Below, piece by piece: positions 1 to 9,533 of a stretch of 64,000 bases of DNA. A program made the translations under genes and the position numbers. The DNA is from Candidatus Latescibacterota bacterium (GTDB lineage Bacteria; Latescibacterota; UBA2968; UBA8231), in contig OZ241362.1 in assembly GCA_965200315.1 (NCBI GenBank), forward strand, positions 4,224,001 through 4,288,000, written 5' to 3'. The notes below the pieces were generated by a model, which saw nothing but the letters and a program-made list of their open reading frames with translations, did not search any database and was not told the origin of the DNA. Position 1 is the first letter of the stretch, and each line of letters starts with the position of its first letter.

Positions 1-99
1 CTAGCTATTTTGGCAAAAAGCCACGGCTTACCCCTTAAAGAGTATCTCAATAAAATTGCCGAAATGCTCTCCCCTTAGGACTTTTCTCGGAGCGTCGGT

Positions 100-609
100 T
101 TATTTGTTGCGATTCTTGTAGCGGCGGCCCCGGTCTTCGACGCGGCGCTCGCGCACTAATTCCATCACCGGGACGCCGTAGCCGCAACTAGTGCCGGTCA
201 GTTCGACCTCAACTTCGATTACTTGGCGTTTGGTGCGCAGGTGTTCGGATTCCGTTTGCAAGAGCAAGGCGGCGTGGGGCGATTCTTCTAGCGAGGTGGC
301 CGAGGCTTGGCCGTAGAGGCGGATGATGCCGGCGTCCGCTCCTGCAAAAGAGCAGACCATGACGGTAATCGGGCCGCCGGCCGTCGCGTGACGCGCTGTT
401 TCGTTGCCGCTGCCCAAGTAGTCGAGAAAGGCCACTCGGTTGGGATCAAGCACGTGCAGCGGTACGCCGCCCTTGGGCGAGAGGTTGACCGGGCCAATGC
501 CTTCGGGACCGGGCGCGAGTGCGGGATCGGCGGAGGCGATGAAAAACAACGGCGCGGCGCGGATCAACGCAGCTTGGTCGTCGGTGATGGAGGGGTAGTA
601 GGTGGCCAT
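100..609 (-). CDS. Pyridoxamine 5'-phosphate oxidase family (FMN-binding split-barrel) protein
   Basis: 169 aa with FFIASA, VNLSPKG, LDYLGSGNETARH and TSCGYGVP motifs typical of the family. Confidence 0.85.
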   Translation of the reverse strand: MATYYPSITDDQAALIRAAPLFFIASADPALAPGPEGIGPVNLSPKGGVPLHVLDPNRVAFLDYLGSGNETARHATAGGPITVMVCSFAGADAGIIRLYGQASATSLEESPHAALLLQTESEHLRTKRQVIEVEVELTGTSCGYGVPVMELVRERRVEDRGRRYKNRNK

Positions 610-630
610 AGGTTTTTTCTTTTGTGGGCG

Positions 631-2409
631 CTAGGCGAGCGTCTCGTTGTATTGCAATTGATGCAGGCGGGCGTAGATGCCGTCTTGGGCTAGCAGCTCT
701 TCGTGGCGGCCCTCTTCGCGTAGCTGGCCGCGATGCAGCACTAAAATTTTGTCGGCACTGCGAATGGTTGAGAGGCGATGGGCAATGACGATGGACGTGC
801 GGTCGCGCATCAGTTTTTCCACCGCCTCTTGGATCCAGCCTTCGGTCTCGGTGTCGATGTGGGCAGTGGCTTCGTCCAGCACCAAAATGTCCGGGTCGGC
901 CGCTAGGGCGCGGGCAAGGGACAAAAGCTGACGCTGACCGGCAGACAGGGCTGCGCCGCGCTCTTGTACCTCGTGCTGGTAGGTGTTGGGCAGGCGGTCG
1001 ATAAAGCGGTCGGCGTTGACATAGCGAGCTGCTTGGGCGACGGCTGAGTTTGACAGCTCGGGAGCACCGAAACGGATGTTGCTGGCAATGTCCCCGGCAA
1101 AGAGAAAGACGTCCTGCTGCACCAGACCAAAGCGCCGCCGCAATGCTTCTACATTCCATTCGCGGATGTCGATGCCATCGACCAAAATTTGCCCGCGTTG
1201 AATCTCGTAAAAGCGGCACAGCAAGCTGATGATGGTCGTCTTGCCCGAGCCGGTGGCTCCGACTAGTGCCAAGCTTTGGCCCGGGTCGGCGCAGAAGGAA
1301 ACGTCGCGCAGGACCCACTCCTCATCTTCATAAGCAAACCACACGCGGCGGAATTCAATGGCACCGGCGATGCGCTTCCGATGCACGGAACCGCCGCTTG
1401 GCTCTGGCTCGGCGTCCATTAGTTCAAAGATGCGCTCGGAGGAAGCCATAGCCACCTGCACGGTGGCGTATTCCTCGGCGAGGTTGCGGATGGGCATGAA
1501 GAAGCGGGGCACGTATTGCAGCATGGCCACCAGAACGCCCCAGGCGATTTCCTCGCGCAGCACTTGGCCGACGCCGTACCACAGCACCAGCGCCATCAGG
1601 GCCGCACCACACAACTCCATAAAGGGGAAGTAGGCTGAATGGTACAAGGTGCGCACCAAGCGGGCGTCGAGGTATTCGTCGGTGCCTTGGTTAAAGCGGC
1701 GGGCGCTGCGCGGCTCGCAGTTGAACAGTTTTACTACTTCTATACCCGACAAGGTTTCCTGCAAATCGGCGCTGAAGCGGGCAAAGCGAGTGCGGGCTTG
1801 GCGGAAGGCTTGGTAGGTGCGGTTTTGTAGCCACAGGGTGGCGGCAAAGGCCACCGGCAAAAAGGCGCAGGTGATAAGGCCCAGCTCGACATCGAGATAG
1901 TAGAAGATGTAAAACAGGATAGAGGCGATGGTGACGGCTTCAGTCACCAACGAGACAGCACCGTAGGTGAAGAACTCGTTGAGCGCATCGACATCGCTGG
2001 TATTGCGCGCCATCAGCCGGCCAATGGGCGTGCGGTCGAAAAATTTGAGCGGCAGGCGCTGTAGGCAGGTGAAGATGTTCAAGCGCACGTCGCGCATAGT
2101 CCATTGGCCGACCATGCTGGTGATCCAGCTCTGGGCGTAGCCGATGGCGAATTGAGCGACCAACAGCGCGGCGAAGAGCAGGACGAGGGTGCCCAAACCG
2201 TCCAAGTCGCCGGGCACGATGTGGTCGTCAACGGCTATTTTGGTCAGCACGGGACCGGCTTGGCGGGCCAGCGAGGCCACGAGGATGAGCAGCAACGTCG
2301 AGACCGCCCACGGCCAGTAGGGCCGCAAGAAACCCAACAGCCTCGTCACCAAGCGGAGGTCGATAGATTTTTTGTCTATTTCCTGCTCGTCGCGGCTGGT
2401 CGGCGGCAT
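631..2409 (-). CDS. ABC exporter, fused permease/ATPase (MdlB/TmrAB-like heterodimer subunit)
   Basis: N-terminal TM domain, Walker A GATGSGKT, signature LSAGQRQ, Walker B ILVLDEAT, IAHRLST; start overlaps res stop (TAATG). Confidence 0.95.
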   Translation of the reverse strand: MPPTSRDEQEIDKKSIDLRLVTRLLGFLRPYWPWAVSTLLLILVASLARQAGPVLTKIAVDDHIVPGDLDGLGTLVLLFAALLVAQFAIGYAQSWITSMVGQWTMRDVRLNIFTCLQRLPLKFFDRTPIGRLMARNTSDVDALNEFFTYGAVSLVTEAVTIASILFYIFYYLDVELGLITCAFLPVAFAATLWLQNRTYQAFRQARTRFARFSADLQETLSGIEVVKLFNCEPRSARRFNQGTDEYLDARLVRTLYHSAYFPFMELCGAALMALVLWYGVGQVLREEIAWGVLVAMLQYVPRFFMPIRNLAEEYATVQVAMASSERIFELMDAEPEPSGGSVHRKRIAGAIEFRRVWFAYEDEEWVLRDVSFCADPGQSLALVGATGSGKTTIISLLCRFYEIQRGQILVDGIDIREWNVEALRRRFGLVQQDVFLFAGDIASNIRFGAPELSNSAVAQAARYVNADRFIDRLPNTYQHEVQERGAALSAGQRQLLSLARALAADPDILVLDEATAHIDTETEGWIQEAVEKLMRDRTSIVIAHRLSTIRSADKILVLHRGQLREEGRHEELLAQDGIYARLHQLQYNETLA

Positions 2410-2421
2410 TAGAGGTCGCTC
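2341..2421. repeat. Direct repeat copy 1 flanking the type III R-M cassette
   Basis: 2378-2421 matches 6798-6841 at 43/44 nt; weaker similarity extends to 2341 and 6760. Confidence 0.95.
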
Positions 2422-5003
2422 TCCTTGTCAAAATACTCCGGCAGCTTGGCTCTCCATTCGCTCATCAGAATCAGAGTGCCTTGCACTGTCTCGCCGTTGC
2501 TTTGGACAAGTTCTAGCTCACCGGCTGGGGTAAACTCGTCCCAACAGAAGTTGTCGGACAGGAAGGACAGGACTTCGCGCTTATAGGCCGTGTCGAGATT
2601 GTCGAGCTGGTCGCCTTTGGTCTCAAGGACGATGACGCCTTTGCCTCGAACGGCGAAGATGAAGTCGGGATAGATTTTGGCCTGCTTCCAAGCCTGAATG
2701 CCGTACTGCGTCCGCGCAACGTTGCGATGCCACCACGAGAGTGCGGCTTCACCGTCTAGGTAGATCGCAACATCGCGCTCGTCTTGGTTCAATTCGCTTC
2801 CGTACACCGGCGCGAACAGGCTCTTTTCTAACGGCCCTCCCGTCGTGCTCACGAGCTGACGGGCATTGTCGGGCTCCATTGTCTCCGCAATAAACGGCAT
2901 GCGCCAATTGCGACCGTCAAGACGCAGCCGAAACTGAATCCGGCCCGCCTCCATCTCCGCCTTGAACAAGGCTTCGGCCCGCACGGTGCGCTCGGTATCC
3001 AAGCCCTTGCGCAGTTCCTCGACGATCAGGCTGGCAAGCCCGCCCAGTTTGGCTTCATCGAAGCCGCGCACCTTCAGGTCAGACAAGAGCTTGCCAACGA
3101 TTTCCCGCCCGACGAATGGGTTGGGCACTATATCTGATATCATCCTAACGGCATACGCGGGATCAAAGGCGAGGGTTTCGGCATTCTTGGCGACCGTCTC
3201 ACCAACGAACAATTCGTCCCCGTCATCGCTGAGTTTGATGCGCTGAAGCTGGCTCTCGGCGGCTTGGGCATTGTCGGGAATACGGGCCGCGATGTCCTTC
3301 GGGTCGTAGCCGCGCCAGTCAATGCACGACAACACATCGGTTTCATAGTCTAGGTCGCGCCCCTCGCCTCCGTCCACAATCAGGACCTTGGGCAGATAGA
3401 TTTCCGTTGAAGCGAAATCCGCTCGCCGCTCGAGCTGCCTCTCCACCCTGCCGCCGCCTGACGTGTCGTCTTGGGAGACCTGCAAGACCATATCCCCGAG
3501 ACCATCTTTCTCAAGACCATTCTTGATAGCCTCCACGACTTTCGCGGTAGCGGTGCGATGGGTTATGACGTGACATTCGTCCAGCGCGGTCACCTCAGCC
3601 TTGGTCGCACCCGGCTGACGGAGAATTCGCCCTACGAGCTGGGTCATGGCCTTCAGGTTGGAATTGGCGGCTAAGGCACAAAGCAGATAGGCGAAGGGGC
3701 AGTCCCAGCCTTCTTGAAGTGCCTGCTTGGTGATGATGAAGCGGACGCGGTTCGTTGGCGACAGAAGGTTCTGGTTTTCTGGCTGGTTCAGGTCGTTCTG
3801 TTCAGCCGTCTTGATTGCGATTTCCGCCTCATCAAAGCCCGCCTTTAGAAGCCAGTCCTTCACGTCCTCCGCATGGATGTGCCCGCTTTCGCGCTGGTCC
3901 GCGCCGGTGCGCTCCACCTGTATCAGCATGATGGGCCGAATGTAGCGCCCCGTGTCGGCCTGCAGCTTCCGAGCCTCGTCGCCCAGATCGCCGAGCTTGG
4001 CGACAGCGGCGTTCAAGGTCGTCTTCCAGTCATTACCCTGCCGGGGATCGAGATTGAGAGGCATCTTGATCATGCCCTCGCGGTCCAGATCGCGCCCGGT
4101 CACTTCGACCAGCACATTCGCGTATCGGCCCTCGCGCGGGTTCCTGCCACCACGCGGCTGCACATCTTGGGGCGTCGCCGTGAGTTCCAGCACGAAACAC
4201 GGGTTGAAACCGTAAAGCGTACGAAACGCCAAATCGGAAATGGCCCGGTGCCCCTCGTCGAGCACCACGACGGGACGGATGATCCGCAGGGCGTTGCCGA
4301 GCGAATCCTTCACCATCGGGAATATGTCGTTATAGCCGTCTAGGTTGGGTGTCTGATCGAGTGCTGCCTTGTGGGCCTGCTGTGCGCCTTCGGGCGGGAA
4401 GAAGCCATGCACATCGCCGCGATCCTGAAACATTTTCAGCGAGTCCTTGTTCTCGCGGTTCGAGGATTGCAGCATCAAGAGCATGACGCAGAGGTTGGTT
4501 TCCACGTCGCGGGCATTGAGGCGGTCGGTCTTCTCCATGAGCTGCACCCGGCCAGCGGCGGCGCGATCAAGTGCCTGCCGGTAGGGGTGTTGGCGGTCCT
4601 TCAGATGCTTCAGCGTCTGGGTGTAGATCGCTTCGTTGGGGACGACCCATAGTACAAAGCCGGTGTTGCGATTGAGATAGCGGCCCATAATCCGCGAGAC
4701 GGCAGAGACCGCGAGATAGGTCTTGCCACCGCCGGTTGGGACCTTCAGGACGGCGTTTGGTACGGGCCGGTCGCACCCGTCTAGGCGGGGCGAAAAAGGA
4801 ATCGCCGCACGGGAGGCCGGGAGGTTTGCTCTCAGGGCCTCCCATGCCTCTTGGGCGAAATCTGGGAGCGGGAGGTTGAGATAGGGGTTTTCTACGGCCA
4901 GTGCGACGATCTGGTCGGATCGGGCCTTTTTCTCCTGCAGAAGATCGAGATGAGCGTCAATGGCCGTAAGGGCGCGGTCCTGGTAGTTGAGCTGGCGGAA
5001 CAT
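2409..5003 (-). CDS. res: Type III restriction endonuclease subunit (SF2 helicase plus PD-(D/E)xK nuclease)
   Basis: VPTGGGKT, DEGH, ELTATP, LQEGWDCP, QLVGRILR, C-terminal YPDF...LETKG; directly downstream of mod. Confidence 0.92.
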   Translation of the reverse strand: MFRQLNYQDRALTAIDAHLDLLQEKKARSDQIVALAVENPYLNLPLPDFAQEAWEALRANLPASRAAIPFSPRLDGCDRPVPNAVLKVPTGGGKTYLAVSAVSRIMGRYLNRNTGFVLWVVPNEAIYTQTLKHLKDRQHPYRQALDRAAAGRVQLMEKTDRLNARDVETNLCVMLLMLQSSNRENKDSLKMFQDRGDVHGFFPPEGAQQAHKAALDQTPNLDGYNDIFPMVKDSLGNALRIIRPVVVLDEGHRAISDLAFRTLYGFNPCFVLELTATPQDVQPRGGRNPREGRYANVLVEVTGRDLDREGMIKMPLNLDPRQGNDWKTTLNAAVAKLGDLGDEARKLQADTGRYIRPIMLIQVERTGADQRESGHIHAEDVKDWLLKAGFDEAEIAIKTAEQNDLNQPENQNLLSPTNRVRFIITKQALQEGWDCPFAYLLCALAANSNLKAMTQLVGRILRQPGATKAEVTALDECHVITHRTATAKVVEAIKNGLEKDGLGDMVLQVSQDDTSGGGRVERQLERRADFASTEIYLPKVLIVDGGEGRDLDYETDVLSCIDWRGYDPKDIAARIPDNAQAAESQLQRIKLSDDGDELFVGETVAKNAETLAFDPAYAVRMISDIVPNPFVGREIVGKLLSDLKVRGFDEAKLGGLASLIVEELRKGLDTERTVRAEALFKAEMEAGRIQFRLRLDGRNWRMPFIAETMEPDNARQLVSTTGGPLEKSLFAPVYGSELNQDERDVAIYLDGEAALSWWHRNVARTQYGIQAWKQAKIYPDFIFAVRGKGVIVLETKGDQLDNLDTAYKREVLSFLSDNFCWDEFTPAGELELVQSNGETVQGTLILMSEWRAKLPEYFDKESDL

Positions 5004-5007
5004 GTCA

Positions 5008-6627
5008 TCAGCTCGGGTCTATGCGATAGAGCGCGTAGGGCAGGGGCACAAACTCTACGGGGATGTTCTGCTCGGCCAGCATCTTCTGGCTCACGAAGCG
5101 GGTAGAGGCAAAGACTAGGTGGCGCTTGTCCGGGGCCGTCTCTGCAAATTTCTTGGCACGGGTGAGTGTCAGCGCGGAGTCAGGTGACTTCAGATAGTCG
5201 AGATCGGGTTTGTAGATCAGCCAGACATGCTGGCCCGCGGTCGCGCCGAGATAGAAGTCCGCCTCGCGCACGGTCGCGGGCGTGAGGGCACTATTGGTCG
5301 CCATGTGGAACAGGGATGCACCAATTCCCGAATAGGAAGGCAGCGTTTCGCCGCTCAGTATCTTATCTAGTTCGACCGGGGAGCCTAGGGTGTAATAGGT
5401 GAAGGTGCCGCCCAGCCCTTCCCGCAACGACTGGTCGTGGGCCGAAGGTACGCCCTTGATGGCGTGGCGCACCCGCTCGGCGGTAGTTGTGTCGGCGTAT
5501 TTCTCGCACTCCACCAAGATAAACTTGCGATTGCCGCCATCCTCTTTATTGAGTGCCAAGACGGCGTGGGCGGTGGTGCCGCTGCCAGCAAAAGAGTCGA
5601 GAACGATAGCGTCTTTTCTACGCAATATCGCCAGCAAAAACTTCACTAGTTTTGTCGGTTTGGGTTGCGGAAATACTCCCCCCGTGCCGAATAGCTCTTG
5701 CAGCTCTCGGGTGCCGTCCTTGTTGAACCCCACCTCTTCTGGCGAAAGAATCGCGTCAGGTGGTTGCCCCTCTTGGACTTCATTCAGATACCGTTTTGCT
5801 TTGGGTTCTCTGCCGGAGAATACAATGCGATTCTGCTGCTCCATTTCTCGCAATTTGCATTTCGAGTACCTAGGGTATTTTCCAGAGGGAGGCTGCCAAA
5901 TGGTGCCATTTGCGAAGGTGAATGTGTAAGGTTCGTAATAGTTTCTTGCATGGATAGGATCAAGCTTGTACTGGCCGCGCCCATCATTGTCATCATGTGG
6001 ATACTTGCTTGCCTTGTCGGTAATGTGTCGAATGTAACGGGCCTTTTCTGAACTAAACCATGTCTTGTCCTTTGCATAGGCGAGAACATAGTCGGCGTTG
6101 AGGTTAAAGTCCTTGCTGGAATTGCGGACGGTGTGCATTGCTCTTCTCGTGAGAACAGCAAAAAAATTGATGTCACCGAAAACTTCATCCATTAACATCC
6201 GTAGATGGTGCTGCTCGTTATCGTCAATGGACACGAAAATCACGCCGTTATCGGCCAGTAATTCCCGTAGTAATCGCAGACGGGGCCACATCATTGCACA
6301 CCACTTGTCGTGGCGTAGACCGTCCTCAATCCCTACCGGGTTTGAATTGATCCACTCCTTGATCACGGGAGAATTTACGTTGTCGTTATAGCACCAGCCT
6401 TCGTTACCGGTGTTGTAGGGCGGGTCGATGTAGACGCAGTCCACCTTGCCCGCGTAGAGCGGCAGAAGTGCCTTGAGGGCGTGTAAGTTGTCGCCGTGAA
6501 TGATCAGGTTGCCGTCGAGCGCGACCGGGCCAATGCCCTTGGTCGCGTCCGGGACGAGCGGACGGAAGGGTACGGCAAGATGATGATTATAGACAAATTC
6601 CTTGCCCTTGAAATTCAGATCGGTCAT
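5008..6627 (-). CDS. mod: Type III R-M DNA methyltransferase (beta class, N6-adenine)
   Basis: IIHGDNL, YIDPPYNTG, FVSIDDNE, PKPTKL, LDSFAGSGTT motifs; lower-GC central target-recognition region. Confidence 0.95.
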   Translation of the reverse strand: MTDLNFKGKEFVYNHHLAVPFRPLVPDATKGIGPVALDGNLIIHGDNLHALKALLPLYAGKVDCVYIDPPYNTGNEGWCYNDNVNSPVIKEWINSNPVGIEDGLRHDKWCAMMWPRLRLLRELLADNGVIFVSIDDNEQHHLRMLMDEVFGDINFFAVLTRRAMHTVRNSSKDFNLNADYVLAYAKDKTWFSSEKARYIRHITDKASKYPHDDNDGRGQYKLDPIHARNYYEPYTFTFANGTIWQPPSGKYPRYSKCKLREMEQQNRIVFSGREPKAKRYLNEVQEGQPPDAILSPEEVGFNKDGTRELQELFGTGGVFPQPKPTKLVKFLLAILRRKDAIVLDSFAGSGTTAHAVLALNKEDGGNRKFILVECEKYADTTTAERVRHAIKGVPSAHDQSLREGLGGTFTYYTLGSPVELDKILSGETLPSYSGIGASLFHMATNSALTPATVREADFYLGATAGQHVWLIYKPDLDYLKSPDSALTLTRAKKFAETAPDKRHLVFASTRFVSQKMLAEQNIPVEFVPLPYALYRIDPS

Positions 6628-6759
6628 CTCGTCTCCTCGCCTTGTTCTTTGTTTGCCCGAGCGTCATTTCGCCCTTTGCTGGCGTTGATTTGAAATTGTG
6701 ATTGTCACTGCCAGGGACCAACGGCGCACTGTTGCTAGCATATACGCGAACTGCCTAAA

Positions 6760-6841
6760 CCTCGTCAAGCAAGCCCCGGTCAATGGATTTTTGCTCGATT
6801 TCCTGCTCGTCGCGGCTGATCGGCGGCATTAGAGGTCGCTC
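6760..6841. repeat. Direct repeat copy 2: end of upstream ABC gene plus vestigial 24-codon 5' stub of the downstream ABC gene
   Basis: Minus strand from 6829 reads MPPISRDEQEIEQKSIDRGLLDEV*, versus MPPTSRDEQEIDKKSIDLRLVTRLL at 2409. Confidence 0.93.
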
Positions 6842-8574
6842 AATTCATCGGTGAGGTGCTGGCGGCGGTACATATCAGCATACAGGCCATCGTGCGCGAG
6901 CAATTCGCCGTGGGTGCCCTCTTCGACAATGCGCCCTTCGTCGAGCACAATGATGTGATCCGCGGCCATGACGGTAGAGATGCGATGGGCGATGAGGATG
7001 GTGGTGCGCTCGGCCATGATGTCGCGCAGGCGCGTGAGGATTTGCTCTTCGGTGCGGGTATCGACGCTGGCTAGGGCGTCGTCGAGGATGAGGATTTTCG
7101 GTTGCCGCACCACCGAACGAGCTAAGGCCGTGCGCTGCTTTTGCCCGCCCGACAAGGTGACGCCGCGCTCGCCGACGATGGTGTCCAGCCCTTGGGGAAA
7201 GGTCTTGAGATCCGCGGCTAGTTGGGCCACCTCAACAGCGCGTTCGACCGCGTCCGCAGCGGCTGAGTCGAGGGCGATGTTGTCGCGGATGCTCTCGGAG
7301 AACAGGAAGGTGTCCTGCGGCACGTAGCCGATGGCGTCGCGGAAGGTGCGCAACGGCATATGTTCAATGGGTTTGCCGTCGATGAGGATTTGGCCCTCGC
7401 CGGCTTGGATGAGGCGGGGGATGAGCCGAGCCAGCGTGCTCTTGCCCGACCCGACCCGCCCGACGATGGCTAGGGTGCTGCCGGCCGGAATGTGAACATC
7501 TATATCGCGCACCACGGTTTGGCCATTGTAAGCAAAGGAGGCGCGGCGGAATTCGATTTCGCCTTTGATCGCCAAGCCGGCGTCTTGGTACTGGTCGGGC
7601 TGGGGCTGTTGTTTGAGCACGGACTCGATGCGCAGCATGGAAGCCATGGCGCGCTGGTATTCATCGACGATGCGGCCCATCATCATCATCGGGCGGCTCA
7701 TGCGGATCAAGTAGGCGTTGAAGGCGACAAAGGCCCCCAAGGTGAGCGTCCCTTCGACGACGCGGATGCCGCCGAGCCACAGAATGAACACCATGGACAG
7801 GCCGCTGATGAGGAAGGTGAAGGGGAAAAACGCGCTGTAGAGGTAGATTAGGCTGCGGTTGCGCTCGACGTACTCGTCGTTGAGCCGGGTGAAGTGGTCG
7901 ATCTCACGGCGACAGCGGGCAAATGCCTTGACCACGCGTACGCCCGCGAGGTTTTCCTGCAAGCAGGTGCTAATGGCGGCAAATTGCTCTTGCACCATGC
8001 GATAGCGTCGGCGCACTCTGCTGCCCACCACGCGCAAAATCGCGGTCATAATGGGCATGGGCAACAGCGCGTAGAGGGTCAGTTCCCAGTCGTACAGGCA
8101 CATGGCTACCATGCTGAAGCTGAAGCCGAGCAGGGCCCCTAGGAACATGCGGAAGCCGTGGCTGAGGTAGCGCTGCACGGCTTCGACGTCGTTGGTCGCC
8201 CGCGCCATCAAATCGCCGGTGCGGGCCTGTTGGAAGTAGCCCAAGGGCAAGGTGAGCAGGTGGGCGAAGTAGCGCTGGCGGATGTCGCGCTCGATGCGGA
8301 ACGAGGTGGCGGCCAAGTGCCAGCGCATGCCAAAGGCCATGCTCCACTGCGCCAAGCCCAAGCCGACTATGAGGGCGGCGTAGTGCGCGAGGAAAGTCAG
8401 GTTGGGTGTGGCTTGGTCTAGGCTGGCTTGGGCTTGGTCAATGGCGCGTTCGAGGACGAGGGGGATAGAGACGGAAACGAGCTGTTCGCCCAGCAAAAAG
8501 GCTAGGCCGATGACTAAGGCCCAGCGATATGGGCGGAGGTACGAGGCGAACGGTTTGAAGGGATTGAGACTCAT
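6829..8574 (-). CDS. ABC exporter, fused permease/ATPase (MdlA-like heterodimer subunit, degenerate Walker B)
   Basis: TM domain, GRVGSGKS, LSGGQKQR, ILDDALASVD, IAHRIST. Confidence 0.95.
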   Translation of the reverse strand: MSLNPFKPFASYLRPYRWALVIGLAFLLGEQLVSVSIPLVLERAIDQAQASLDQATPNLTFLAHYAALIVGLGLAQWSMAFGMRWHLAATSFRIERDIRQRYFAHLLTLPLGYFQQARTGDLMARATNDVEAVQRYLSHGFRMFLGALLGFSFSMVAMCLYDWELTLYALLPMPIMTAILRVVGSRVRRRYRMVQEQFAAISTCLQENLAGVRVVKAFARCRREIDHFTRLNDEYVERNRSLIYLYSAFFPFTFLISGLSMVFILWLGGIRVVEGTLTLGAFVAFNAYLIRMSRPMMMMGRIVDEYQRAMASMLRIESVLKQQPQPDQYQDAGLAIKGEIEFRRASFAYNGQTVVRDIDVHIPAGSTLAIVGRVGSGKSTLARLIPRLIQAGEGQILIDGKPIEHMPLRTFRDAIGYVPQDTFLFSESIRDNIALDSAAADAVERAVEVAQLAADLKTFPQGLDTIVGERGVTLSGGQKQRTALARSVVRQPKILILDDALASVDTRTEEQILTRLRDIMAERTTILIAHRISTVMAADHIIVLDEGRIVEEGTHGELLAHDGLYADMYRRQHLTDELSDL

Positions 8575-8678
8575 GCGCTGTTTGGTGGGCCGCTCATAAC
8601 CTATTTAGACTATACATATTTATAACCTGTGTCAAAGTAAGCGGGCGTTGCCCTAGCGACTACGAGGAGACGCACCAA

Positions 8679-9533
8679 ATGAATGCTTTCCGAATGACCG
8701 CCGACGAGCTCCAGCGTTGGGAGCGCGATGGATATTTTGTGCGCGCCAACGTCTTTTCACACGAGGAAAACGATCACTTGCGGCAGGTGGCCGAAGACGT
8801 TGTCGCCGGGAAACGCAGCATGCCTATGGCGCACATCGACCGCAATGCCTTGGTCCGCGACGGCAAAGACGCACGAGCGGGTGTCTATGGTATGCACAAG
8901 ATCCATCACCCCAGTTGCTACATCCCGGAGTTCCTCGCCCGCGTCCGCGATCCGCGCCTGACCGATCCGCTCGTGGATATTCTCGGCCCAGACATTCTGG
9001 GCATCAACAACCTCTTCATCTGGAAAGCTCCTGAAATCGGCTTGGGATTCCCGTGGCACCAAGACAAGTTTTACTTTGGCAAGCGGTTCAAAACCGCAAC
9101 GACCGTCGGCACTTGGACGGCAATCGACCCCGCCGATCGCGAAAACGGGTGCCTATACGTGATTCCTGGCAGTCACCAACAGGCCATTGCCGAACACGAC
9201 GACATTGAGGGGTCGCAGCAGACAGAATTCAAACTGGCCCGCAATGCCCGCGACGAGGACGGCCTGGCCGTGGAAGTTCCACCCGGTGCGGTCATTTGGT
9301 TTCACTCTCATCTGTTGCACAAAAGCACCAACAACCACAGCCAGCGATTTAGACGCAGCTATGTGTCTCATTACTTAAGCGCACAGGCTGAATGGTCTGA
9401 TCCAGAAAAAGCTGGCAAAGGTCAGCCGATTATGTGGGTACGAGGACGGACGTTCCCCGGCAAAGTTCGGGAGGTTACACGCGACGTTCTGCCCGTTCCC
9501 GACAAAAACTGTGAGAGAGGAGCACGTCCATGA
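8679..9533 (+). CDS. Phytanoyl-CoA dioxygenase (PhyH) family Fe(II)/2OG dioxygenase
   Basis: WHQD, ENGCLYVIPGSH, FHSHLLHKS..N.S...RR; SD AGGAG upstream. Confidence 0.92.
   Translation: MNAFRMTADELQRWERDGYFVRANVFSHEENDHLRQVAEDVVAGKRSMPMAHIDRNALVRDGKDARAGVYGMHKIHHPSCYIPEFLARVRDPRLTDPLVDILGPDILGINNLFIWKAPEIGLGFPWHQDKFYFGKRFKTATTVGTWTAIDPADRENGCLYVIPGSHQQAIAEHDDIEGSQQTEFKLARNARDEDGLAVEVPPGAVIWFHSHLLHKSTNNHSQRFRRSYVSHYLSAQAEWSDPEKAGKGQPIMWVRGRTFPGKVREVTRDVLPVPDKNCERGARP

Follow-up and report, generated by a model that had tools for sequence, protein, structure and literature searches.

The subject of this analysis is a Type III restriction-modification (R-M) cassette found in a 64,000-nt stretch of contig OZ241362.1 from a Candidatus Latescibacterota bacterium (the window, whose positions serve as coordinates below; its genome is called G000 here). 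The cassette lies on the minus strand between the genes of two ATP-binding cassette (ABC) half-transporters, ABC-A and ABC-B, and we consider it probable that it arrived there by an integrase-free "insertion with long target duplication" at the TAATG stop/start overlap of the pair, with later remodelling of the junction. The order of the genes on the minus strand is ABC-A, a stub open reading frame (ORF), a 127-nt leader, mod, res and ABC-B, and the unique inserted DNA (leader, mod and res) is 4338 nt long. A sequence-only reading of the window had already proposed a Type III cassette inserted between coupled ABC genes, and this agrees with our comparison, in which the insertion point is exactly the TAATG overlap and the two ABC genes have kept their adjacency in 23 of 24 relatives.

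The evidence that carries this view is, in the first place, the duplicated junction. In a repeat search a direct repeat was found at 2350-2421 and 6770-6841, 72 nt long without gaps, 88% identical and 4420 bp apart from start to start; if one gap is allowed, its copies cover 2341-2421 and 6760-6841 (81 and 82 nt, 82 columns, 86.6% identity, E 6e-23, blastn of the two 1.5-kb flanks). It contains a core that is identical at 43 of 44 nt, G AGCGACCTCTAATGCCGCCGA[T/C]CAGCCGCGACGAGCAGGAAAT, and both copies start on the minus strand with G-AGC-GAC-CTC-TAATG-CCG-CCG. Re-reading of the letters thus confirmed the earlier claim of an ABC-A/ABC-B junction present twice, 4420 bp apart, with a 43/44 core inside about 80 bp of degenerate repeat. 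The upstream copy (6760-6841, minus strand), delimited by comparing the repeats and by alignment with the 23 empty sites described below, consists of the last 12-13 nt of ABC-A, the TAATG and ~70 nt from the beginning of ABC-B, whose 5' end it tracks with a 1-nt insertion near +57 until a TAG is reached after 24 codons. The TAA stop of ABC-A overlaps the ATG of the stub as TAATG, and the stub ORF (6755-6829, minus strand, MPPISRDEQEIEQKSIDRGLLDEV*) reads as a frameshifted copy of the ABC-B 5' end that stops at this TAG, which is the dead 24-codon stub that had been described after ABC-A. Since the version of the stub in a second carrier, G004, extends to 47 codons (hand count) against 24 in G000, it is not conserved as a protein. 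The downstream copy (2341-2421, minus strand), delimited by the same two comparisons, runs on into the functional ABC-B.

The second line of evidence is the state of the site in relatives. The genus is represented by 31 genomes, and the site was examined in 24 relatives of G000, 19 from a search with ABC-B, where the orthologue is 94-96% identical, and 5 added; left out of the count were G015, G016, G017, G024 and G018, with matches that are only 53-69% identical, and G041, which was not searched with ABC-B. Among the first 19 loci ABC-A ends 2 nt before the ABC-B ATG in 18 and res stands upstream in G004, and the 5 added members are all empty, so that an empty site in which ABC-A adjoins ABC-B is found in 23 of the 24. 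A search of relatives for the empty site had been recommended, and the case had been made to hinge on an adjacent ABC pair; these 23 genomes have that pair, with a single undivided junction. In the junction alignment 22 of the 23 empty sites have the TAATG overlap; in G045 (L156) 6 additional nt stand between the stop of ABC-A and the ATG of ABC-B (CTCTAATTTTTAATG), a natural variant in which the overlap is lost. Because the sequence that is duplicated in G000 occurs once in each empty site, the insertion is the derived state and the duplicated segment is the target. The remaining relative, G004 (a Candidatus Latescibacterota metagenome-assembled genome, MAG), is collinear with the window over 652-8775 (90.5% over 8143 bp), the collinearity stopping at ~8775, and it has the same stub, leader, mod and res as G000. 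Independent insertion in G000 and G004 is very unlikely, because among the 31 genomes of the genus the leader and the stub end are common to these two only.

The events that would lead to this arrangement can be described as follows. An ancestor of this sponge-associated lineage would have received the cassette in its chromosome, at the 1-nt stop/start overlap TAATG, and ~82 nt of target sequence (~12 nt from the end of ABC-A, the TAATG and ~70 nt from the start of ABC-B) would have been duplicated, by which ABC-A would keep its end, followed by a dead ABC-B stub, and ABC-B would keep its complete 5' end behind res. Transcription of ABC-B would then pass through mod-res, starting at the promoter of ABC-A, at that of the cassette or at both, and its translation would begin by termination-reinitiation at TAATG with AAGGAG in G000, or from an AAGGA 8 nt upstream in G004. 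Later, a 10-nt deletion in G000 would have removed the native res stop, leaving res to end on the ABC-A-derived SDL-TAA and restoring the TAATG overlap. The repeat copies may still recombine, those of G004 having probably been homogenised by gene conversion, and a crossover between the repeats would be the likely route of precise loss or excision, which could explain the carriage of the cassette by 2 non-sister species of 25.

Insertions of this kind form a class whose founding paper is said to be that of Nobusato, Uchiyama, Ohashi and Kobayashi from 2000 (Gene 259:99), as cited in Furuta 2010. In the part of Furuta, Abe and Kobayashi (2010; Nucleic Acids Research (NAR) 38:2428, PMC2853133) used here, the class is defined by R and M genes inside an insert of <20 kb, a duplication of >30 bp and no other mobile element. 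It is reported there for Types I-IV, including Type III in Campylobacter with 107-208-bp repeats; the repeats often span start or stop sites and keep the gene at the target whole, and mention is made of insertion into an operon-like cluster (PMC2853133). In the window mod and res are both inside the repeats, the repeats are 4420 bp apart and hold no other mobile element, and the 81/82-nt duplication is present as a single copy in the empty genomes of the same genus. On all three counts the cassette belongs to this already described class, which it resembles in having R and M alone between long repeats, no mobility gene and intact target genes. It differs from the published members in its uncultured sponge-associated host, in being an old insertion that is shared by two species rather than a strain polymorphism, in repeats that have diverged to 87% in G000 and are homogenised in G004, and in a res end that is fused to duplicated host codons. 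R-M units with long direct repeats on either side reportedly also undergo tandem amplification, again by way of a citation in Furuta 2010. The architecture in the window would likewise permit unequal crossing-over between the repeats; however, it has no sign of amplification, being a single copy with even read depth.

Another question is how old the insertion is and whether its genes are maintained. At four-fold degenerate sites the divergence between G000 and G004 is 0.17 for mod and 0.23 for res, in comparison to 0.17 for ABC-A, 0.22 for ABC-B, 0.23 for orf169 and 0.19 for rpoB. As the divergence of the cassette matches that of the flanking genes, the insertion is old by this measure, and the presence of the cassette in both lineages goes back about as far as their separation. 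By the Nei-Gojobori method (NG86) the same pair of genomes gives synonymous divergences (dS) of 0.19 (mod), 0.28 (res), 0.26 (ABC-A) and 0.38 (ABC-B), with ratios of non-synonymous to synonymous divergence (dN/dS) of 0.16, 0.19, 0.18 and 0.08, respectively, values at which all four genes are under purifying selection. The dN/dS of ABC-B is also 0.08 between G000 and the empty G043, so its constraint is no weaker with the cassette in place.

The distribution on the tree is less simple. G004 is the sister of the empty G043 in the trees of rpoB (28 rows, without G018, for which no match was obtained, and without G020 and G041, whose rows were partial), of ABC-A (its 3' 1.5 kb) and of ABC-B (minus its first 90 nt), the latter two with 25 rows each, with values of 99-100 in the Shimodaira-Hasegawa-like approximate likelihood ratio test (SH-aLRT), and G000 branches elsewhere. 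A clade of G000 and G004 is rejected by the approximately unbiased (AU) test (p 0.0024 with the flanks concatenated, 2.6e-8 with rpoB). Carriers that are not sisters imply either several precise losses or a movement of the cassette between species, and both of these need recombination in the repeats.

One possible option is lateral spread, in which a circle excised by crossover between the repeats is taken up by a related species and re-integrates in the Campbell manner, through the ~70-nt homology of the junction, into the empty TAATG site of that species. That G000 and G004 are not sisters agrees with it, and so does the fact that each 150-nt window compared places the G004 flanks nearer to G043 than to G000 (on the ABC-A side up to ~130 nt from the junction, on the opposite side from the start of ABC-B onwards), as a flank-free transfer predicts; at this 150-nt resolution no flanks co-transferred between G000 and G004 were found. 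In terms of parsimony, one gain with one transfer (2 events) does no worse than one gain with 2-4 losses, and a "virus-like life cycle" is a hypothesis stated in the part of Furuta et al. (2010; PMC2853133) used here. Yet the dS of the cassette between G000 and G004 (0.19-0.28) is larger than the flank dS between G004 and G043 (0.16-0.17) and close to the flank dS between G000 and G004, so a transfer would need to date back roughly to the origin of the species, or its donor would have to be a third lineage that is not sampled. Neither circle joints nor empty-site joints were found in the reads, and in a scan of metagenome contigs for Mod the best 80 of 577 relatives are all ≤66% identical, giving no further close copy and no alternative site. 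We therefore regard lateral spread as a possible but less probable account, and somewhat favour an ancestral insertion followed by 2-4 scar-free losses, that of G043 included, because the cassette looks older than the split of G004 and G043.

Signs that the repeats recombine can be seen in G004. Over the 54 nt from TAATG to +52 its two copies differ at 0 sites, and the upstream copies of G000 and G004, their downstream copies and the two copies of G000 each differ at 6; the variants in the repeat sequence shared by the G004 copies also occur in the ABC-B of G043. Our reading is that the copies underwent gene conversion once the species had split, for which the pattern is clear in G004. Gene conversion is possible in G000 too, where a G at +14 is common to both copies and is present in 0 of the 23 empty sites. 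The conversion in G004 lends indirect support to a crossover that is able to excise the unit. The sequence-only reading had stated that one recombination between the repeats would excise the cassette and restore the operon; the geometry holds, in that the operon would be restored by a crossover that falls left of the 1-nt indel near +57, but excision is not frequent, because the insertion has outlasted speciation (dS 0.19-0.28) and no joints occur in ~8x of reads. Mapping of reads to excised junctions or circles, which had been suggested as a check, gave none in these raw reads, whose depth is too low for rare events. The genome has a single copy of the cassette, and the raw-read depth is alike inside and outside it.

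The end of res appears to have been rebuilt after the insertion. In G000 the Res C-terminus reads ...KLPEYFDKESDL-TAA, with the stop overlapping the ABC-B ATG, and its tail, DKESDL and TAA (2409-2429, minus strand), looks non-native by its sequence, by the C-termini of the family and by the comparison with G004; it contains an AAGGAG (2421-2426) that lies 11 nt before the ABC-B ATG. In G004 the protein ends KLPKYLRRG-TGA and CAAGGACGCATATA-ATG follows, the stop being 17 nt before the ABC-B ATG. Compared with G004, 10 nt (GAGAAGGGGT) are missing in G000 right after TATTT, as a result of which the TGA is out of frame, res reads DKESDL and it stops on the TAA that overlaps the ABC-B ATG. Res proteins of the family end from 0 to about 10 residues past a conserved KLPxY(L/F), and none ends in SDL. 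As G004 has this family-typical Y-L end, we infer that the G000 form is derived, a secondary and lineage-specific change that is separate from the insertion; no indel variant at the res tail was seen in four runs. The earlier description of a res that ends on the host's SDL codons, with TAATG coupling and an AAGGAG Shine-Dalgarno sequence, is therefore correct for the G000 sequence but does not hold as a product of the insertion, since res in G004 ends with TGA.

A different origin of the repeats would be a site-specific integrative element, with the two copies as attL and attR made by an integrase that acted in trans or was later lost. The insert is indeed flanked by direct repeats, and integrase-made repeats of ≥40 nt are known at tRNA genes (Furuta et al., 2010, PMC2853133, in the part used here). 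However, the target here is a junction of protein-coding genes, a stop/start overlap, and not a tRNA gene, and the absence of an integrase noted earlier was confirmed by Pfam searches of the annotated genes and of the 7 largest alternative-frame ORFs, which revealed no recombinase or transposase between the repeats (no Pfam match for the latter at E≤0.01). The repeat search reported no terminal inverted repeats where the cassette borders its flanks, the leader is not a repeated element, and 65 of 68 other loci of the family have no flanking repeat, the exceptions being two with weak 29-36-nt matches and one with a remnant of an insertion sequence (IS). Such an element is thus quite improbable. 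An assembly artefact, by which the R-M block was misjoined into the ABC operon through a short repeat, deserves mention as the genome is metagenome-derived and repeats can mislead assemblers, but it is next to impossible, because the arrangement passes the misassembly check that had been proposed: it recurs in the chromosome of a second species (G004), contigs of 10,666 and 18,882 nt from an independent run of another study (X2) cover 1800-3813 and 4464-7400 with one mismatch each, and both junctions are covered, with neither joints nor loose ends, by raw reads from a third study (X21, ~8x, from a strain that differs slightly).

Is ABC-B still expressed behind the cassette? It had been suggested that its expression now depends on read-through or on translation of res, and this dependence is plausible given that terminators are not in excess, that contigs of RNA libraries bridge res and ABC-B, and that the dN/dS of ABC-B stays at 0.08. 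A scan of 1-9200 gave 7 terminator-like sites in comparison to 9.4 expected, with none above chance between ABC-A and ABC-B on the minus strand, and 3 promoter-like sites in comparison to 3.4 expected, only sites of the sigma-70 type being covered. Contigs of the metatranscriptome libraries X6 (1800-3386) and X7 (1800-3236) bridge res and ABC-B, and another X7 contig (6365-6849) bridges mod, the leader, the stub and the end of ABC-A. The leader (6628-6754, minus strand) is non-coding, with GAGGAG ahead of the mod ATG, and presumably carries the mod-res promoter. An RNA structure that occludes the ABC-B start, which would favour obligatory coupling, was considered and dropped, as six 100-nt windows (upstream and downstream copies in G000 and in G004, G043 and G002) had z values of -0.44 to +1.55 and no signal. 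In both RNA libraries the contig over ABC-B and the 3' end of res stops at 3236-3386 and has ~2x the word depth of the next contig, and a sigma-70-like hexamer pair is found within res at 3514-3487 (minus strand). A promoter internal to res, between 3236 and 3514, might feed ABC-B, contig depth being a poor measure of this.

Several points weigh against our account of an insertion with target duplication and later remodelling. The insertion event itself is not observable, and its enzymology has not been established for published cases either. It is uncertain where the original duplication had its left edge, as G004 lacks AGCGACCTC ahead of the TAATG. The choice of the G004 form over the G000 form as the ancestral res end relies solely on the usual Y-L end of the family. 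Contigs of RNA libraries may include DNA, and a contig that bridges two genes is not proof of a single transcript. The longest perfect identity between the G000 repeat copies is 21-22 nt, and because the perfect block is only this long the rate of crossover in G000 should be low. Finally, excision or circle joints, loose ends and indels were not seen in the X21 raw reads (~8x) or in the X2, X6 and X7 contigs, a comparison with low power.

A bolder interpretation, which we consider doubtful, is that the cassette acts as a long-lived "hostage-taker" of the operon. An imprecise deletion would kill the transporter, transcription would be borrowed from the operon, ABC-B would be coupled to res in G000, and the ~80-nt repeats, whose likeness gene conversion maintains, would offer the sole exit through rare scar-free excision, possibly with circles re-entering the same site in relatives. 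Were this true, it would bear on the hypothesised cycle of insertion, amplification and release, whose release and re-infection steps are, according to the authors in the part of Furuta et al. (2010; PMC2853133) used here, without experimental evidence. The understanding of R-M mobility is left unchanged by this case, and its additions are modest. The published examples are mostly strain polymorphisms in cultured, mostly naturally competent bacteria; to these is added a well-resolved case in which the host lineage is uncultured and sponge-associated, 23 sites are empty, a second species is occupied and the carriers are not sisters. The case shows that speciation need not end such an insertion, all four genes having been kept under selection, and the gene conversion in G004 indicates that the flanking repeats stay recombinationally active and evolve in concert. 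The fusion of res to host codons suggests that small indels can re-engineer the junction and restore coupling with the downstream host gene. The site also offers a defined target for the polymerase chain reaction (PCR) on excision products or circles.

The cassette encodes an intact Type III system, as predicted from its protein sequences. mod (5008-6627, minus strand) encodes a DNA methyltransferase of 539 aa (Pfam N6_N4_Mtase 1e-32; PADLOC MTase_III 4.9e-192) with DPPY at 68 and FAGSG at 346, the DPPY plus FxGxG arrangement of an N6-adenine-type enzyme. res (2409-5003, minus strand) follows directly, with a gap of 4 nt, and encodes a restriction subunit of 864 aa (Pfam ResIII 1e-14; PADLOC REase_III 1.8e-177) that has the predicted motifs of a superfamily 2 (SF2) helicase/ATPase and of a nuclease: GGGKT at 91, DEGH at 249, TAT at 275, QLVGR at 455 and PD-x14-ETK at 779-796. 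The assignment of these motifs to methyltransferase, helicase and nuclease roles follows EcoP15I-type enzymes. In Type III systems Mod can act alone, an asymmetric site is hemimethylated, and cleavage depends on ATP and on a pair of sites in inverse orientation. The system resembles EcoP15I and EcoP1I in the order mod-then-res, in DPPY preceding FxGxG, in the SF2 motifs and in a C-terminal PD-(D/E)xK-like motif in Res. It is unlike EcoP15I in that the similarity to its Res, the sole relative by sequence with a solved structure (4zcf_C), is remote (E 2.6e-5 over 56 residues) and in that the Res of the window has 864 aa vs 970.

Homologues of Res that are ~80% identical, with a mod upstream, occur in many Alphaproteobacteria and in other phyla, and among the 80 loci kept for comparison mod and res were both found in 77. 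Within the genus, Res is ≥89% identical in 2 of 31 genomes, and the remaining Type III Res matches, at ≤41% identity, sit at other places. Mod is only ~45-55% identical to most members of the family, vs ~80% for Res, and the guanine-plus-cytosine (GC) content of mod falls to 0.46-0.50 at about 5600-6400 vs ~0.60 around it; the low GC and the diverged Mod on a conserved Res suggest an exchange of the target-recognition region, which would give a different specificity. The DNA similarity to the family loci starts at the mod ATG and ends at ~2426-2433, the native end of res, and the leader has no match in the 79 other mod-res loci. Long flanking repeats were considered as a general trait of the family and rejected because, of the 68 other loci with sufficient flank, 65 are without one within 1.5 kb; L078 and L095 are the two with weak flank matches only (E 0.002-0.007). 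In L054, from a Rhodobacteraceae MAG, mod-res is flanked by ~600-nt diverged direct repeats of 75-86% identity (L054:2393-3007 and L054:8096-8818), and the downstream copy overlaps an ORF with a fragment of a DUF772 transposase domain; these repeats look like IS remnants that bracket the R-M unit, a mobility context unlike that of the window. In at least 10 family loci (L044, L045, L048, L056, L062, L064, L065, L067, L072 and L111) a conserved third ORF that starts ATGGAATT(C/T)GAT... follows ~20-30 nt after res; it does not occur in the cassette of the window.

The target of the insertion has the features of a heterodimeric ABC exporter operon, with two half-transporters that each combine a transmembrane domain (TMD) and a nucleotide-binding domain (NBD) and with the stop/start overlap of the empty sites; the pair has no NCBIfam equivalog at its cut-off. 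ABC-A, the upstream half-transporter (6829-8574, minus strand, 581 aa), was identified as an ORF with Pfam ABC_membrane (4e-52) and ABC_tran (5e-31), ends DELSDL-TAA and is 88-95% identical to its orthologues over residues 83-581 (23 relatives). ABC-B, the downstream one (631-2409, minus strand, 592 aa), is an intact ORF with Pfam ABC_membrane and ABC_tran, shares the TAATG at 2407-2411 with the res stop and is 93-96% identical to its orthologues (24 relatives). A second, paralogous ABC half-transporter locus lies at G000:C1:2468657-2470420, outside the repeat, and is 53% identical to ABC-B; most relatives have one too. On the other side, a gene for a PhyH-family dioxygenase (8679-9533, plus strand) adjoins ABC-A in the window, and it is not at the matching place in the 14-kb region of G004.

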